A stretch of DNA of 64,000 bases from Bacteroidota bacterium (GTDB lineage Bacteria > Bacteroidota > Ignavibacteria > Kapaibacteriales > NICIL-2): the NCBI GenBank assembly GCA_019695345.1, contig JAIBAE010000004.1:39765-103764 (forward strand). The letters are read 5' to 3'. The notes under the pieces are model-generated. The model searched no databases and was not told the DNA's origin. It saw nothing but the letters and a program-made list of their open reading frames with translations. The number at the start of each line of letters is the position of its first letter. Position 1 is the first letter of the stretch. A program made the translations under genes and the position numbers. Shown here one piece after another: positions 17,300-24,207 of this stretch.

Positions 17300-19996
17300 T
17301 TAGTGTATTACAACTACTTTTTGAGTTGTAATTGTTTTACCCGATTGTAAGCGAACATAGTAAACACCGCTTTCTACATTCTGTGTATTCCAGTTAAGCG
17401 AATGATGTCCTGCATCAAATTGTTGTTGTGCCAACTGTTCTACAAGTTCACCGCTTGCATTAAATACATCAACAGTAACAATGGCGGAATTTGTTACAGT
17501 AAAACCAAGTGTTGTTGTAGTTGTACTTGGGTTAGGTGATATGGATGTATTGTTTGTGTTTACAGATTCTTCTTCAACCGGAGTTGGGTCTTGCGTCCAC
17601 TTAGCTAAGTTTACACTGGATTTCTCGCCGGCAGCACCAAACTGTCCGCCAAAGTACATACCGCCAAATGCAGGAGCCATAGCAAACACATTGTTTCCAT
17701 CAATTCCGCTGCCTAATGCATACCATTTCTTTCCCGGAATGTGGTAACGAGCAACATGTGGAGCGCGAATACCACCTATAGTATCAAACTGACCGGTAAC
17801 ATACAGGAACTCACCATGACGTAGAAAACGTGTGATTTGACCATTTGCATTCCCAACAGAACTCCATTGCTTGGTTGTTATGTTCCACACAGCAATATTA
17901 CGAATAGCCTGAGCACCAATAGCTGAAAAGCGACCTCCTATAAATACATTGTCATCTGCAACTGCAACTGCCTGTACAAACGGTCCGTTATTAAAACCAC
18001 CACCGCCGCCGCCACCTTGGCGTACAGAAAGTGTATCTGTTCCTAAGGTTTCCCACGCTGTGCCATTCCATTTTGCTACACACGAAGCGCGAGTATCGCC
18101 AGTATGGCTAAAACTACCACCTACATACAAATCCGATGTTTTTGAATCAACTCCAATAGCAAATGCAGAACCGAATATGGTAAAGTCATTACCTTGGAAA
18201 CGACCTTTTGTTAAAAGCCCATTACCTAAACCCTTCCAACTTGTGCCATCAAATTTTGCAATTGCTCCAATAGTAGTATCACCATTTACACTTCTGAAAT
18301 TTCCGGCAATGTAGAGGTCGGTACCTACTTTTACAATTGCTTGAGCTTGTGCGTTGTTGTTATTACCGCCAAACTGATACGCTTCCAATTTTGCAAGTAT
18401 ATTCATTTCCTTTGTAGATGGATTAAATCGAATTACACCGGCTCCATCTATTTCGCCATCTTTCTTAAATGCACTTGCCATCAAAAGGTTGTTTACATCC
18501 GGTTCAATAACAATGTTGTTAAATTGATTTGCAAAAGGTACACCTTCTACAGCACTCCATGTAGTACCATCAAACTTTGCCAGAAAGCGTGCTTCTGTGG
18601 TACCAATATGGTTGAATCCACCGGACATGTATAACGCGCCATCTTGTGTTTGTGCAAAGTCAAATACAGCTCCGTCAGTTCCATTTCCTTTTTTGTTTTC
18701 GTTAATAGTAGTCCATTCAGTGCCACTCCATACAGCAATGCCTTTTATCTCGGTAGTAGTGCCTGTTACCGCAAACTCACCACCAATTAATACATTGCCG
18801 TGTAATAGTCCAACTGTATTGGGGGCAATATCTAAATTATCACCACCCAAAGCCGACCACGTTGCTCCATCCCATTTTGCAATGTAATAGATTTCTTTAG
18901 TAGCATTGTTTACCATGTCAAACCCACCACACACATAGATGTTATTGCCATCTATATACAGCGATTTTACAGCTTCGTTTACACCTCCACCAACCGGTGC
19001 CCAGACAGATCCTGTCCAGCGTGCTAAGTTATTAACCGCTACCGTACCCGATTTAACAAAGCTTCCGCCAATCACCAAATCACCATTTGTCATAAATCCG
19101 GCTGTATAAACATTTGCCGATGACCCGCTTGGTGTTAAACCCGCTCCCATAATTTCCCACGCTTTAGCGGACTTATTCCACGCCACCATACTCAATGCTG
19201 TTTTATCATCAACCTTCTTAAAATTACCACCAACATAAAGGTACTTATCGTTAGATATAACCATCGAAACACTTCCATCGGTTATACCTTTACCAATAGG
19301 TTCCCAATCAGTACCGTTCCACTTTGCAATGTTTCTTGCCGTATCCGAAGCGGTAGGTATAGAAAACTGTCCACCAACATATAAAGCATCTGTTCTGTAA
19401 TCAACTGAAATCACCGAACCGGTAATACCGCTATCTAATGCAATGTATTGCTGTCCGTCCCAACGTACAATATTGTTTACGGTAACACCGCCAGCTGTTT
19501 CAAATGTACCGCCAATATATACATCACCATTTTGAGCAATCGAAATTGAGTTTACAACACCATCGCCACCACTGGCAGACACTAATCCGCTTCCTAACGA
19601 TCTCCACCGCGAACCATCCCACATCACAACCGAGCGTGAGTTCATACCTAAAAACGAAGGCCAACTACCGCCTATGTACACTTTGCCATCCTTAACAGCA
19701 ATTGTATTTACAGTAATGTTGTTTTCTACTTGTGTAGCTGCAAATCCATTATCCCAGAACACATCTTCATAAACACCTTGTATTGTAACAGGTGTTTTTG
19801 CAAAACGTGGCGCTTCGGTAGGATTTTTCACAACAAGGTTATAGCCACTGGTATTTACAGTAGTAGCGTTTTTTAAGGCAGATATATCTAACGTTCCATC
19901 CTTACGTAAAAAATGTTGAAGAGATGAAACTTGCGCCTGGCTCACCGTTAAACAAACAGCTATTGCAATCAGGCATACTATGTACAAACGGTGCAT
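17300..19996 (-). CDS. Large secreted beta-propeller-repeat protein with a T9SS C-terminal sorting domain.
   Basis: Signal peptide MHRLYIVCLIAIAVCLTVSQAQV. A unit of about 50 aa repeats many times (..(K/R)W(N/D)GTxWxx(L/I)GxG...). The C-terminal 80 aa (VFNASGELVEQL...GVYYVRLQSGKTITTQKVVVIH) match the T9SS CTD pattern. Confidence 0.75.
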   Translation of the reverse strand: MHRLYIVCLIAIAVCLTVSQAQVSSLQHFLRKDGTLDISALKNATTVNTSGYNLVVKNPTEAPRFAKTPVTIQGVYEDVFWDNGFAATQVENNITVNTIAVKDGKVYIGGSWPSFLGMNSRSVVMWDGSRWRSLGSGLVSASGGDGVVNSISIAQNGDVYIGGTFETAGGVTVNNIVRWDGQQYIALDSGITGSVISVDYRTDALYVGGQFSIPTASDTARNIAKWNGTDWEPIGKGITDGSVSMVISNDKYLYVGGNFKKVDDKTALSMVAWNKSAKAWEIMGAGLTPSGSSANVYTAGFMTNGDLVIGGSFVKSGTVAVNNLARWTGSVWAPVGGGVNEAVKSLYIDGNNIYVCGGFDMVNNATKEIYYIAKWDGATWSALGGDNLDIAPNTVGLLHGNVLIGGEFAVTGTTTEIKGIAVWSGTEWTTINENKKGNGTDGAVFDFAQTQDGALYMSGGFNHIGTTEARFLAKFDGTTWSAVEGVPFANQFNNIVIEPDVNNLLMASAFKKDGEIDGAGVIRFNPSTKEMNILAKLEAYQFGGNNNNAQAQAIVKVGTDLYIAGNFRSVNGDTTIGAIAKFDGTSWKGLGNGLLTKGRFQGNDFTIFGSAFAIGVDSKTSDLYVGGSFSHTGDTRASCVAKWNGTAWETLGTDTLSVRQGGGGGGGFNNGPFVQAVAVADDNVFIGGRFSAIGAQAIRNIAVWNITTKQWSSVGNANGQITRFLRHGEFLYVTGQFDTIGGIRAPHVARYHIPGKKWYALGSGIDGNNVFAMAPAFGGMYFGGQFGAAGEKSSVNLAKWTQDPTPVEEESVNTNNTSISPNPSTTTTTLGFTVTNSAIVTVDVFNASGELVEQLAQQQFDAGHHSLNWNTQNVESGVYYVRLQSGKTITTQKVVVIH

Positions 19997-20137
19997 AAAG
20001 CAACCTCCCAAATTGAGATGAAAAAATTAATGATTCCCTAAGAAGTGCGAAGTTGTACGTGGTAGATAATCCCAAGTTACAGAGATTCTGTGCAACATAC
20101 TGTTAATTTTTGTCAAAGGAAAAATGATAGTCAGGAA

Positions 20138-21387: not shown

Positions 21388-23279
21388 ATGAGTAAACGTT
21401 TTAAATATCTACATATCAGTGTAATAATCTTCTTTACAAGCATTTGTACTACCTTATCTCAAGCACCTGTTGTATGGGATAATCTTAAAACAGATAGTAT
21501 AATGTTATTTGGTATGGAGGGTAGATTAAATACAGGTGACTTTTGGGGTGGTATAGGATACTACAGTGGGAAAGCACATCCTACTTTAGGAAATGGGGTC
21601 AGAGGTACAATATTTTTTGGCAATGATATTATTCCAAAAGTTAAATTGAAAGATATTAATGCCGCAAGAGGTAAGTATTTATTATTGCCAAATGGTAAAG
21701 TTTATTGTGGTACAGGTATGACACCTATATTATATGAGTTATCAAACGAAGGCAAGCAGTGGGATACTGTAGTTAACTTTTACAAAGACTATGGTTTGAA
21801 TAGTGATGTCCGAGTTTTAGAAGCAGATAAAATGGGAGTAATTTACCTTGGAACAAAAGACGGTAGCTTTTTACGATCAACAGATTTAGGAGATACGTGG
21901 CAGGATATTGTTTACCAAGGTAATGCACCGGAGAAGTTAATTTTTGATGAGAACAATACGATGTTTCATCAAACTGAATTTATAGGACAGCAACGATTAC
22001 ACAAGAGCACTGATTATGGTCAAACATGGCAACGTTTGGATTCATTATTATTATTGCCTTACAATAGATTATCGGCTGAATGGTTAATTACATATTATAT
22101 GTTTGGTAGATTATTAGTGTATTATAATAACACCAGTATTGATGATCAAGTTCGGGTTTTATTGACCGCAGATAAAAATGGAAATAGTGCTACTGAACTT
22201 GTTATGGGTAGAAGACTAGACTTTAATACGAATGTACCGCAGTTTATCATTGAAGATTCACACATACATTACATAGTCTATCCTATAGTACTGGTTCTTT
22301 GCAATATAGCATAGACTCTGGCAAAACCTGGCGGGAAACAGGGTATATTGATCCTCGTCCCGATGCACGCCCTATTGTTTATGATACAGTACAGCATATT
22401 CGATATGATTCTTTGGATATTGGTATGTATCCAACAGACCATTTAACTTTATTACCCACCGGTCATATCCATATAAGCCATTTTCATTATCGGTCACGGT
22501 TCAGTAATCCAACTCCACCACAACGCATATCAAGTATGGTTAGGTGCGGGTATGCAACTGAAACATTTGTCAGTGATACTTTAACAATGGTAGAGGTGGT
22601 GAAAGCTGGGAGTATGAATGTAATAGTACGATATGATACCATTGTACCCAAACGTTCTATACAGGTGCATATTTATAGTAAAGATACATCGCAGTATGCA
22701 CATTTTCTTGTTCGTGCAAAAAATTCGAAAGGATATGAGACCCAATGGAGTGAAGATATGTTTCCAAGGGTAAAACAAGAACTAACAATCCGTAGGGCTT
22801 CAAACATTAAACAAGTAGATACACTTGATGCAGGGTTTGCCGTAAACTATGTATGGTACAGAAACGGAATCAAAGTGACATATCCAAACAACCCTACGTT
22901 TTTATGGTTTTACCGAACAATGCCATTAGATTCGGTTGGCACCTACTGGTGTGAAATTTTCGATACAACAGGGTGTGTACAAACAACCGCACCGTACACC
23001 TACAACCCTGTAAGTGTACCGGAGGAAACTAACACTGAAATTCGGGTATTTCCAAACCCTGCAAACGAGAGTATAACTATTACAGGCATTGGCGATTTGG
23101 TAGGACAAATAGAAATCATTGATATGTTGGGGAATGTGCTGTTGGTATCCGACGCGAGGCATCGTGCCGCTACGGGTATGGGTGTAATTGATATTCGCGA
23201 GTTACCAAACGGTGTATACGGTGTTCGTATTCCAACATCACACGGTCTATATCAAACACGGTTTGTTGTTGCACGATAG
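21388..23279 (+). pseudogene. BNR/Asp-box repeat secreted protein with a T9SS CTD. The reading frame breaks near 22290-22315, so this is a frameshifted gene or a sequencing error.
   Basis: ORFs 21388..22314 and 22299..23279 overlap by 16 nt in different frames. The first has a signal peptide and SxDxGxTW Asp-boxes (STDLGDTWQ, STDYGQTWQ). The second starts inside another Asp-box (SIDSGKTW) and ends with a T9SS CTD (VFPNPANESITI...YQTRFVVAR). Confidence 0.55.
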
Positions 23280-24130
23280 GTATAATGAAGTACAAAGAAA
23301 CATATAGAACTTCTACTTCTCGTTTGGCATCGTGGGATTACTCTAATACAGGTGCATACTTTGTTACAATTTGTACTCGTGACAAAAAACAATACTTTGG
23401 AAGTATCAATGTACATGAAAACAATGAACTTGCTAATGTATCTGTTGTAACAACACAACTTGGACAAAGGGCAATTGAGGAATGGCATAAAACACCGGAG
23501 ATTCGGCCTGATATGAATATCGAGTTATTGGATTTTGTATTGATGCCAAATCACATACATGGAATAATATTCATCAAAGAGAATGAATACAATACTCGTA
23601 GAGACGCGATGCCTCGCGTTTTGAATGACACATCAATACAATCACGTAGAGACGCGATGCCTCGCGTCTTAACAGGTGAAACAGAACGGTGTAATCGTTT
23701 TTCAAGTCAATCAAAGAATCTTGCATCAATAATACGGGGATATAAATCTGCCGTTACAATGTATGCCCGGTTACACAACATAGAGTTTGCGTGGCAACCA
23801 AAGTATTACGAGCATGTAATCCGAAACGAACAGGATTTACAGCGTATTCAAGTTTATATCCAGAATAATCCTGCACAATGGAAGTTGGATGAGTTATATA
23901 ATAACGAGTAGAAAACACAAATGCGGATGATTTCCGACGCGAGGCATCGCGTCGCTACGATTTGTTGGTGTTACTCTCAAATTGTGCTGTTGCTATCCGA
24001 CGCGAGGTATCGCGCCGCTACTGGAATGAGTGTAATTGATATTCGCGAGGTACCAAACGGTGTGTACGGTATTCGTATGACAACACCTCACGGTTTATAT
24101 CAAACACGGTTTGTTGTTTCGCGATGATTC
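23140..24130. mobile_element. REP/RAYT-like unit. The transposase is flanked by, and internally carries, copies of the palindrome gacgcgaggcatcgcgtc, and a 135 bp piece of the upstream gene's 3' end is duplicated.
   Basis: Hairpin copies lie at about 23147-23170 (imperfect, inside the CTD-coding sequence), at 23601-23620 and 23649-23668 (reverse orientation, inside the transposase ORF), and at 23933-23957 and 24003-24026. The segments 23143-23279 and 23997-24127 are about 88% identical. ORF 23921..24127 encodes ...SDARYRAATGMSVIDIREVPNGVYGIRMTTPHGLYQTRFVVSR. Confidence 0.65.
23285..23911 (+). CDS. IS200/IS605-family (RAYT-like) HUH tyrosine transposase.
   Basis: N-terminal ...GAYFVTICTRDKKQYFG..., the HuH motif MPNHIHGIIFI, and the C-terminal YEHVIRNEQDLQRIQVYIQNNP catalytic-Tyr region. 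The ORF contains an in-frame 48 bp tandem duplication that carries the REP-like hairpin. Confidence 0.8.
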   Translation: MKYKETYRTSTSRLASWDYSNTGAYFVTICTRDKKQYFGSINVHENNELANVSVVTTQLGQRAIEEWHKTPEIRPDMNIELLDFVLMPNHIHGIIFIKENEYNTRRDAMPRVLNDTSIQSRRDAMPRVLTGETERCNRFSSQSKNLASIIRGYKSAVTMYARLHNIEFAWQPKYYEHVIRNEQDLQRIQVYIQNNPAQWKLDELYNNE

Positions 24131-24192
24131 TCTCCGGCAAGTGGATTGTTGTACTATGAACAATGGTTCGGTGCCGTCAGGCGATAGCAAAA
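24128..24192 (-). repeat. Intergenic A/B element, reverse copy.
   Basis: tctctccggcaa ... ggtgccgtcaggcgatagcaaaa. Confidence 0.55.
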
Positions 24193-24207
24193 AATAAATG
24201 ACATGTT

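Follow-up and report, generated by a model that had tools for sequence, protein, structure and literature searches.

A REPtron-like locus in which a predicted RAYT gene is flanked by a duplicated T9SS cargo-gene 3' end

RAYT genes, which encode REP-associated tyrosine transposases, are considered domesticated genes, immobile and present in single copy; by what means they spread, and their REPs with them, is an open question. The locus analysed here, part of a 64-kb window (the whole stretch of DNA under study, 64,000 nucleotides) from a bacterium related to Candidatus Kapabacteria, offers a clean pair of alleles, one of the form unit - RAYT - REP - unit and the other a single unit, with the allele boundaries beside REP hairpins and within a gene whose function depends on its last residues. 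Most of the locus is an element of an already known type; the sole unusual detail is the duplicated gene tail. We consider it likely that the locus is a REPtron-like one, with a RAYT of subclass 2.4 placed directly 3' of a T9SS cargo gene, and that its unit - RAYT - REP - unit arrangement arose by recombination at a REP-bearing unit. Subclass 2.4 is the same as RAYT Group 4 of Bertels, Gallie and Rainey (2017).

All parts lie on the + strand, in the order REP+tail unit (U1), RAYT gene with internal REPs, perfect REP (h4) with a spacer, and second REP+tail unit (U2). U1 (23135..23279), delimited as direct repeat D1 and by alignment, comprises a 16-nt 5' flank, a weakened REP (h1, 23151-23168 followed by GCTACG) and the last ~35 codons of the C-terminal sorting domain (CTD) of the cargo gene, with its stop codon. 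The RAYT ORF (23285..23911, 208 aa, apparently intact) starts 5 nt past that stop codon, and palindrome scan and repeat search placed two intragenic REPs in it (23597..23670), i1 at 23598-23620 and i2 at 23646-23668, each made of CGTAGA and a hairpin. Then come the h4 unit (23922..23982; repeat family D2, inverted pair I4, ssDNA fold), with a 14-nt U-like 5' flank, the perfect REP (23936-23953 followed by GCTACG) and a 23-nt spacer; U2 (23983..24127; direct repeat and alignment), whose REP, h5, lies at 23999-24016; and a conserved cargo-gene 3' flank, called post-U (24128..24195), defined by its homology to the related loci L002 and L086/L087. The RAYT gene has REPs on both sides: h1 ends 117 nt before its start codon and h4 begins 25 nt past its stop codon.

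The cargo gene (21388..23279) encodes a BNR/sortilin-like body and a CTD. A 1-nt deletion near 22259 breaks it, in the window, into the ORFs 21388-22314 and 22299-23279, as judged against the near-identical contig L001, where the cargo is a single 589-aa ORF. The first ORF gives a weak match to Sortilin-Vps10. The second ends in a full-length Por_Secre_tail (residues 250-324, profile positions 1-75 of 75, E 6e-10, score over the cutoff), as is characteristic of a T9SS type A C-terminal sorting domain (Por_Secre_tail / TIGR04183, C-terminal, full length). Candidatus Kapa(i)bacteria have cargo orthologues of 41-47% identity, and a protein search with the CTD found one relative. Orthologues, including some without an adjoining RAYT, and a paralogue (L089, with a compensatory stem change) carry a REP at the same CTD codons; the CTD REP is probably an old in-frame REP of this cargo-gene family. 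Presence of the palindrome in other cargo CTDs is confined to these relatives among the sequences compared: the other T9SS cargo gene of the window (17300-20011, - strand) has none, and nothing CTD-like was found among the longest open frames over matches to the 18-mer in other genomes. CTD exchange between cargo paralogues is also under way, L087 and L089 being 85-100% identical in the CTD and 75-87% in the body. Scans for promoters and terminators gave counts not above the shuffled expectation; the sigma-70 rules used fit Bacteroidota poorly.

The nature of the transposase is indicated by its motifs and its modelled fold. Its HUH motif, PNHIHG (residues 88-93, with H90/H92), is invariant across 27 aligned relatives, and is followed by W170-Q171 and Y191-I-Q-N-N-P196, which align to WQPRFWEH...DYIYINP of E. 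coli TnpAREP (PDB 4ER8). The signature of subclass 2.4 is NH[IFV]H / WQ / YIxNNP (PMC6006769). The 4ER8 entry was the sole match in a sequence search of the PDB and, when an AlphaFold2 model (pTM 0.71) was submitted to Foldseek, the best PDB match (E 2e-7, prob 1.00), followed by the TnpA proteins of IS608, ISDra2 and IS200; the model has the HUH/Y1 fold. The original prediction, which had called the gene a RAYT and not an ordinary IS200 transposase, is borne out by this combination of PNHIH, W170-Q171 and Y191-IQNNP with TnpAREP as best structural relative, and on these sequence motifs we assign the protein to the REP-associated tyrosine transposases, subclass 2.4 (Group 4). By analogy with E. 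coli TnpAREP, it would bind the folded hairpin and its GTAG on single-stranded DNA, cutting nearby with its single tyrosine. The match to profile models was less clear-cut: 52.9 bits (E 3.5e-14) with NCBIfam REP_Tyr_transpos (NF047646), under the curated cutoff of 80, and 22.6 bits with Pfam Y1_Tnp (PF01797), for which the cutoff is 23. Both models are split by a REP-encoded insert, and precomputed Pfam matches are absent for most relatives.

This insert corresponds to the two intragenic REPs, which encode the peptide RRDAMPRVL twice, in a loop after the HUH motif. In the AlphaFold2 model, residues 107-139 have a pLDDT below 50 and lie between a strand (90-97) and a helix (143-163), so the REP-encoded stretch, placed between the HUH and Tyr motifs, is predicted to form a disordered loop at the surface. 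In-frame REPs at this place have been described as the hallmark of subclass 2.4 (Quentin et al. 2018, PMC6006769), which rules out that the intragenic hairpins are a novelty or a peculiarity of the locus. Indeed, a GC-rich hairpin is present inside the ORF of 70 of the 80 RAYT relatives examined, at a median of 63 nt past the PNHxH codons; 57 of these 70 hairpins are GT[AG]G-tagged, and 30 relatives have the same core also outside the ORF, within 1.5 kb. A scan of metagenome contigs gave, among the matches listed, RAYT relatives of at most 43% identity, which served the family statistics and added no filled sites. A 48-bp in-frame tandem duplication holding a hairpin had been proposed for the window gene. 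Compared with its two closest relatives (L002 and L003), the ORF does have exactly 48 extra in-frame bases, which hold the second REP; as a tandem repeat the feature fares less well, the two 48-nt units being only ~83% alike and Tandem Repeats Finder calling no array. The in-ORF REPs are subclass-typical in-frame insertions, the second of which the window lineage has probably gained as a 48-nt in-frame addition.

The palindrome itself, GACGCGAGGCATCGCGTC, was found (at most 3 mismatches) at 23151, 23603, 23651, 23936 and 23999, with no other site in the 64 kb and none in shuffled sequences, which agrees with the five copies in ~900 bp first noticed (one in the CTD, two in the transposase ORF, two downstream). 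The copies at 23651 (- strand) and 23936 (+ strand) are exact; the remaining three have 1-2 mismatches. All five carry a GTAG foot typical of REPs, in the form CGTAG(A/C)-GACGCGATGCCTCGCGTC in one or the other orientation, and three of them are within coding sequence. The three copies outside the transposase ORF (h1, h4 and h5) have the same orientation, hairpin followed by (G/T)CTACG on the + strand. The two in the ORF read CGTAGA followed by the hairpin on the + strand and are therefore inverted relative to the outside copies; h4 and i2 form an inverted pair of 24 nt with 96% complementarity. The flanking REPs h1, h4 and h5 are not inverted to each other, their only inverted partners being the intragenic copies. 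In the classical REPtron (Ton-Hoang 2012; Nunvar 2010), the flanking REPs are inverted to each other. Across 15 REP copies, 91% of the stem cells are paired, with 2 compensatory changes. In ssDNA folding the perfect palindromes fold well (z about -3; for h4, -10.6 kcal/mol and z -2.9), while the CTD hairpins of U1 and U2 are weakened, with z-scores near 0. The h4 unit, which is kept in L002, contains a third, partial copy of U (38 nt, 23922-23959). We take the 18-nt palindrome, together with the GTAG at its foot, to be the probable cognate REP of the RAYT.

In other genomes the palindrome behaves as a true dispersed REP: exact copies of the 18-mer number at least 164, in at least 118 genome stretches from Bacteroidota and Ca. 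Parabeggiatoa. Together with the GTAG foot, this dispersal and the nCTAC found on the same side of 72% of the exact copies uphold the view that the hairpins are REP-like. Clustering around RAYT genes is not the rule, since a RAYT is present in 2 of the 118 stretches and the copies are mostly far from any RAYT. Within the 64-kb window there is no copy outside the locus, and the ~22 kb that surround the orthologous locus in a relative, L087 (represented by L086 in a second assembly), have none beyond the one in the CTD, so that the 'array' is a local cluster only; judged on these two regions, the genome does not look REP-rich. The idea of a REPtron-style array with a REP as part of the CTD coding sequence holds as far as the CTD REP and the hairpins flanking the RAYT are concerned; it fails as to the extent of the array and the orientation of the flanking REPs, which are direct and not inverted.

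We now turn to the duplicated tail. A repeat of ~135 bp at ~88% identity had been announced past the transposase; on realignment the direct repeat extends over 143 nt (23135-23277 and 23983-24125, 89% identity, spacing 848), or 145 nt and 88% when counted to the stop codons, with 17 differences between U1 and U2. U1 completes the cargo ORF, and the secreted protein therefore keeps a complete sorting domain. The frame of U2 is open within the mechanical ORF 23921-24127; this ORF has no N-terminal CTD half, and U2 alone gives no Pfam match. Codon-level comparison of U1 with other functional copies gave dN/dS values of 0.16-0.26, as against 0.39-0.67 in comparisons involving a U2 copy. In the strain variants L004 and L005, which come from other samples, the U2 hairpin is destroyed, U2 has a 1-nt deletion, and the RAYT is damaged as well. 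U2 is probably a relic. Identity between the units is 88, 76 and 77% within the three filled loci and 63-77% between loci, and U2 may be viewed as a displaced, slowly decaying copy, partly homogenised with U1 by gene conversion. That the repeat is not a target-site duplication, as already supposed, is confirmed: its 145-nt length, its 12% divergence and its end at the stop codon rule this out, such a repeat being far outside any transposase's product.

The filled structure recurs. It is present in three further assemblies of the same species (L001, 99.94% identical to the window, L004 and L005), and in diverged form in L002 (RAYT ~84% identical in nt) and L003 (RAYT ~60% identical in aa), in the order tail, stop codon, gap of 5-12 nt, RAYT holding a single internal REP, one or more REPs, tail. 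One ancestral event may account for all three filled loci. The cargo gene of L002 is that of the window, and the surroundings of L003 can be seen only in part. Cargo orthologues in Candidatus Kapa(i)bacteria, L087 (on a 3.28-Mb contig), L086 and L088, are clean empty sites: they have the CTD with its REP, the stop codon and the same post-U flank, and neither RAYT nor duplication. The single unit of L087 can be aligned with U1 as well as with U2; on its left the sequence continues from U1, and on its right from U2. The unit of L088 aligns to both at least partly. The existence of such orthologous sites means that the 848-bp RAYT segment, made up of a REP+tail unit, the RAYT, a perfect REP and the spacer, varies in presence. 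In the empty-site genomes post-U directly follows the single U. It is 74-79% identical between the window and L002 and L086/L087, forms a small conserved stem with one compensatory change, and marks the end of homology. Against the empty-site unit, U1 shows 81% identity and U2 77%, values that do not tell which copy is native.

How filled and empty alleles are related is constrained by the comparison of L002 with L087. These are 95-100% identical in the cargo body and 60-80% from the CTD start onward, and their downstream genes differ. A simple indel fails to relate them, since the whole CTD differs, and the picture of 848 bp inserted or deleted therefore does not link these two genomes directly. 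The empty alleles are explained by gain of the segment as well as by its loss through recombination between the direct repeats.

The reading that we favour is that the filled allele arose by a recombination event at the REP-bearing unit, for which two routes can be proposed. A circular REP-tail-RAYT segment could have integrated, or been excised, across the unit in a Campbell-like manner, through host recombination or through strand transfer by the RAYT at the REP. Alternatively, an unequal exchange could have taken place between the CTD-coding ends of paralogous cargo genes. The empty junction is cargo - single unit - post-U, and the circle junction is predicted to be ...CTCTCAAAT|TGTGCTGTTGG..., with TGTGCTG to the right of the bar. 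In the sequences at hand neither a circular form, nor a donor site, nor a second genomic RAYT copy was seen. Should the filled allele have arisen by action of the RAYT at a REP, it would show how a RAYT gene relocates; if by ordinary recombination, it would be a tidy case of REPs and a RAYT tolerated in and beside coding sequence.

Another possibility, which we hold to be rather unlikely, is an autonomous cassette of the IS200/IS605 type: the RAYT would excise, on one strand, the segment that carries it between REPs of the same orientation (h1 and tail, RAYT, h4 and spacer), which would then be pasted beside the CTD REP, the target gene staying intact because the cassette carries a replacement tail. 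The direct orientation of h1, h4 and h5 recalls the LE and RE hairpins of IS608, and the 848-bp difference from the empty sites is exact, starting about 16-19 nt from the hairpin foot. The start codon stands at a fixed 5-12 nt past the tail stop in all three filled loci, which suggests joint movement of tail and RAYT. The upstream tail of L003 is attached to a degenerate remnant of a CTD and not to an intact gene, and presence differs between close relatives (L002 filled, L087 empty). On the other hand, one copy is seen per genome, on a single contig for each close relative, the U1 and U2 hairpins are weakened (z near 0), and L002 and L087 differ over the whole CTD, that is beyond the cassette. 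The literature reports no evidence of tnpAREP mobility (PMC8266576). As to spread, there is no sign of it in the GTDB representative genomes, where scans with tail peptide patterns gave nothing; tblastn of the tail peptides against the window and 85 loci found them only beside the close RAYT clade. Occurrences of the tail come from MAG assemblies and from four contigs of metagenome or read-archive origin. A widely mobile tail unit is ruled out by these searches and by the single relative found with the CTD. It appears, if anything, slightly more doubtful that in this small clade the RAYT gene forms, or until recently formed, a mobile REP-bounded cassette homing to the REP in T9SS sorting-domain coding sequences and bringing its own last ~35 codons so that the target survives. 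If true, the filled and empty sites would give the first footprint of a RAYT gene that moves, and would be a case of a single-strand HUH element restoring the 3' end of its target gene, as integrase-based islands do.

Even less probable is a relic of two adjacent paralogous cargo genes, in which the RAYT and REPs lay between tandem CTD-REP genes and an inter-REP deletion left the tail of the second as U2. Paralogues with a REP at the same CTD codons do exist in one genome (L086/L087 and L089), their CTDs exchange sequence (L087 versus L089), and REP arrays of 2-4 units are found 3' of the RAYT. Yet the empty-site flanks match U1 on the left and U2 on the right, which an indel within one gene fits better than a fusion, and no trace of a second gene body is seen in any of the three filled loci. 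As for a false duplication made by assembly or chimera formation, 145-nt repeats with hairpins can confuse short-read assemblers, and contigs of the relative GCA_016788765.1 break inside the CTD region, but the chance of it is negligible and it is ruled out by six independent contigs with the structure (the window, L001, L004 and L005, and the diverged L002 and L003), the two copies, with their 17 differences, being moreover too unlike for a collapsed or duplicated pile of reads.

The locus can be compared with known systems. With other members of subclass 2.4 / Group 4 (Quentin et al. 2018, BMC Genomics 19:475) it shares NHIH, WQ and YIQNNP, the variable beta3-alphaC insert of in-frame REPs, GTAG-footed long REPs near the gene, a low REP copy number, an apparent single gene copy, and occurrence in phyla of the Bacteroidota/Chlorobi type. 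It differs from them in having its gene between direct copies of a protein-coding 3' end, one flanking REP in the frame of the neighbour gene, and flanking REPs that are direct, not inverted. The E. coli REPtron (tnpA_REP/yafM with REP/BIME on its flanks; Ton-Hoang 2012; Messing 2012, PDB 4ER8) likewise has a single-domain HUH/Y1 enzyme, the best sequence and fold match, and REPs made of a GTAG tetranucleotide and a hairpin immediately adjoining the gene. However, its enzyme, ~17% identical to the window protein in the fold alignment, is of subclass 2.2 (DHLH, WE, YIHYNP), and its REPs are bulged, in hundreds of copies, none of them intragenic.

Elements of the IS200/IS605 type (IS608, ISDra2) have in common with the locus the fold, the catalytic motifs, direct subterminal hairpins on one strand and the lack of a short target-site duplication. 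In contrast to them, the locus lacks a multi-copy element, TnpB, and defined LE/RE ends with their guide and cleavage tetranucleotides, and its protein is of the RAYT and not of the TnpA_IS200 class; where multiple near-identical copies with defined ends, inserted 3' of a short target, characterize such elements, the window has one copy and close relatives are each on a single contig. REP-decorated proteins, at least in the examples discussed by Di Nocera et al. (2013, BMC Genomics 14:522), show that in-frame REPs are tolerated in coding regions, sometimes at the same site in orthologues, two features found here too. The genes discussed there are mostly concerned with DNA repair or RNA metabolism, with no T9SS sorting domain among them, and the window REP does not lengthen its domain, the 75-residue CTD corresponding to all 75 profile positions. 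Finally, integrative elements whose insertion duplicates the target's 3' end, such as prophages and islands that use tRNA genes, also leave the gene intact and the insert flanked by direct repeats of that end; the locus differs in having no tyrosine- or serine-recombinase integrase and an insert of only ~0.85 kb, and the resemblance would be in outcome only.

The locus also carries two warnings for annotation. REP-encoded peptides (RRDAMPRVL, SDARHRAAT) and small ORFs such as 23921-24127 are by-products of the repeats, and subclass 2.4 RAYTs slip under curated HMM cutoffs because of their REP-filled loop.

The RAYT gene (REP-associated tyrosine transposase; ORF 23285-23911, 208 aa) lies between two copies of the REP-containing 3' end of a T9SS cargo gene (21388-23279), which is an uncommon local feature. 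Realignment upheld the duplicated tail, originally predicted at about 135 bp and 88% identity: the upstream copy, U1 (23135-23279), and the downstream copy, U2 (23983-24127), form a direct repeat of 143 nt with 89% identity (145 nt and 88% if measured to the stop codons) and a period of 848. A partial third copy, of 38 nt, is found around the REP h4. The cargo ORF is seen directly to be preserved by U1. The dN/dS ratio was 0.16-0.26 among gene-finishing tails and 0.39-0.67 where a downstream tail takes part, and in the strain variants L004 and L005 (other assemblies of the same species) U2 is without its hairpin and without one base; on both counts U2 looks like a relic. Within one locus the two tails are 88, 76 and 77% identical, against 63-77% for tails between loci, which points to gene conversion or repeated formation.

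The palindrome GACGCGAGGCATCGCGTC was located, with up to 3 mismatches, at all five predicted sites (23151, 23603, 23651, 23936 and 23999) and at no other in the 64-kb window; shuffled sequence gave 0. The repeated unit extends beyond the palindrome: in every copy CGTAG(A/C) is followed by the hairpin on one strand, so that all bear the GTAG foot that defines REPs. As can be read directly from the parts of the locus, the copy in the C-terminal sorting domain (CTD; h1, 23151), h4 (23936) and the U2 copy (h5, 23999) share one orientation, and the two inside the transposase ORF (i1 and i2) have the opposite one. Copies i2 and h4 make a 24-nt inverted pair (23645-23668 / 23936-23959, 96% complementary) spanning the 3' half of the RAYT ORF, catalytic Tyr codon included; their long-range pairing on ssDNA or mRNA could rival the local hairpins.

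The RAYT ORF matches Pfam Y1_Tnp and, with E 3.5e-14, the NCBIfam model 'REP-associated tyrosine transposase'; neither score reaches its curated cutoff, because a long insert interrupts the two models. The sole PDB sequence relative of the protein is E. coli TnpAREP (4ER8), in an alignment that takes in the HUH region and the WQPxxxEHxIRN...YIxxNP region; 4ER8 is also the top fold match of an AlphaFold2 model (pTM 0.71), ahead of the transposases of IS608 and ISDra2. Its motifs, PNHIH, WQ and YIQNNP, are the signature of TnpA_REP subclass 2.4 (Quentin et al. 2018), i.e. Bertels Group 4 (PMC6006769). In-frame REP insertions inside the tnpAREP gene, between HuH and Y, are a remarkable and unique trait of this subclass (PMC6006769). 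The hairpins within the ORF, the most striking point of the original prediction, are therefore present but not new, and the locus is a subclass 2.4 RAYT with REPs, the known intragenic ones included.

A GC-rich hairpin lies within the ORF in 70 of 80 RAYT relatives taken from metagenomes (median position 63 nt past the PNHxH codons), and 57 of the 70 have a GT[AG]G foot; at 30 loci of the survey a matching hairpin core occurs outside the gene too. The hairpin sequence varies from locus to locus and thus changes along with the gene. Residues 107-139, which the REPs encode, are modelled with low confidence as a loop that has a strand before it and a helix after it. The ORF has exactly 48 in-frame bases more than its two nearest relatives and the second REP lies within them, in keeping with the predicted 48-bp in-frame duplication; however, the two 48-nt units are only ~83% alike and TRF did not report the repeat. 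In L004 and L005 a nonsense codon interrupts RAYT (K144 to stop), which argues that the gene is dispensable.

The product of the cargo gene is BNR/sortilin-like, and its T9SS type A sorting domain is complete. A 1-nt deletion near 22259 splits it into overlapping ORFs (21388-22314 and 22299-23279); L001, a same-species assembly 99.94% identical, is without the deletion, which reflects either recent pseudogenisation or a sequencing error. The detectable cargo relatives are only four proteins (41-47% identity), three annotated as Candidatus Kapabacteria or Kapaibacterium and one that comes from a read archive. The REP adds no length to the CTD, whose 75 residues cover all 75 profile positions. 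Its presence in the CTDs of other T9SS cargo genes was borne out for orthologues and a paralogue of the same family, and not for the window's other cargo gene (17300-20011, minus strand), which is large and has an ordinary sorting domain where no REP was found. In the paralogue (L089) the REP occupies the same codons with a compensatory stem change, and U1 of the diverged locus L002 has a different one. The REP-in-CTD feature is confined to one cargo-gene family.

RAYT-free (empty) alleles exist beside the filled ones. At L086 and L087 (one locus in two assemblies, the latter on a 3.28-Mb contig; L089 is from the genome of the former) and at L088, the orthologous CTD has a REP or decayed REP at the same codons, then the stop codon and the same ~70-nt flank as after U2; neither RAYT nor a second tail is present at these gene ends. 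The single L087 unit aligns with U1 as well as with U2, and the sequence around it follows on from U1 on the left and from U2 on the right; one 848-bp segment thus sets the window apart from the empty allele. The L087 orthologue has a 1-nt insertion immediately ahead of the REP. Among filled loci, L002 shares the cargo gene and its RAYT is 84% identical in nt, and the RAYT of L003 (~60% aa identity) lies downstream of a degenerate CTD remnant; the order in both is tail, stop, 5-12 nt, RAYT (one internal REP), 1-4 REP units, tail. Clean empty alleles in relatives thus accompany the RAYT-between-tails arrangement, and the locus matters more if the filled/empty pair is a footprint of RAYT-gene mobility. 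The window, L002, L087 and L088 all conserve the ~70 nt past the U2 stop (24128-24195), with downstream genes that differ in each. This stretch includes a small CGGCA/TGCCG stem, in which one change is compensatory, and may serve the cargo gene as a 3' UTR element or as a terminator.

Between filled L002 and empty L087 the cargo body is 95-100% identical; identity drops to 60-80% exactly where the CTD starts, and the downstream genes differ. The fall comes right after a near-invariant block of ~48 nt (~22966-23018; GGGTGTGTACAAACAACCGCACCGTACACCTACAACCCTGTAAGTGTA, encoding ...GCVQTTAPYTYNPVSV), shared by cargo orthologues and paralogues otherwise 65-75% identical, and on this comparison the block behaves as a recombination junction ahead of the CTD. 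L087 and its paralogue have CTDs more alike than their gene bodies. Both observations argue that CTD-coding ends are exchanged among paralogues, so that these data cannot tell a gain of the RAYT segment from its loss. Over 22980-24090 the divergence of L004 and L005 from the window rises from ~0.2% to ~4% just past i2, then to >20% in U2; recombination tracts thus seem to end at REPs.

As to the origin of the filled allele, the RAYT enzyme would recognise GTAG plus hairpin on ssDNA like TnpAREP, whose cut sites are CT or CA next to REPs (PMC8266576). The duplication would stem from recombination across the REP-bearing unit, either by Campbell-type integration or excision of a circle with one unit and RAYT, or by unequal exchange between the ends of paralogous genes. 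On a more adventurous reading, the segment bounded by REPs would be a cassette like IS608, homing to the REP in the CTD and bringing a replacement tail. The shared direction of h1, h4 and h5, the constant distance between tail and RAYT and the exact segment boundaries speak for it, but nothing points to a second copy in any genome, or to spread. A target-site duplication made by the transposase is ruled out, as predicted, by a repeat that is 145 nt long and diverged. An assembly artefact is ruled out because L001, L004 and L005 show the U1/U2 structure too. Another subclass 2.4 RAYT, from a metagenome (L038, 1-1497), is bracketed by REP-containing direct repeats (~290 nt, 90-94% identity, period ~1202 nt); long direct-repeat flanks may be commoner in this subclass than reported.

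Among GTDB representative genomes the exact 18-mer has at least 164 copies, spread over at least 118 stretches; the hosts among the matches listed include many Bacteroidota and Candidatus Parabeggiatoa. In these listed matches nCTAC is on the same side as in the window for 72% of exact copies, and just 2 of 118 stretches have a RAYT homologue. Such copies, numerous, dispersed and seldom beside a RAYT, argue for a genuine dispersed, GTAG-tagged REP family; recurrence in other genomes was thus confirmed, and clustering near RAYT genes was not. Around a relative's orthologous locus no REP beyond the CTD copy was found in 21.9 kb and 10.2 kb (two assemblies). The REP looks sparse in the window's lineage, which agrees with the low repeat counts of Group 4 (Bertels et al.). 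Two Candidatus Parabeggiatoa MAGs (Gammaproteobacteria) are rich in the identical 18-mer: they account for 29 of the first 80 stretches in the list, with arrays of 3-6 copies in some; its occurrence there and in many Bacteroidota implies one REP/RAYT lineage shared across phyla.
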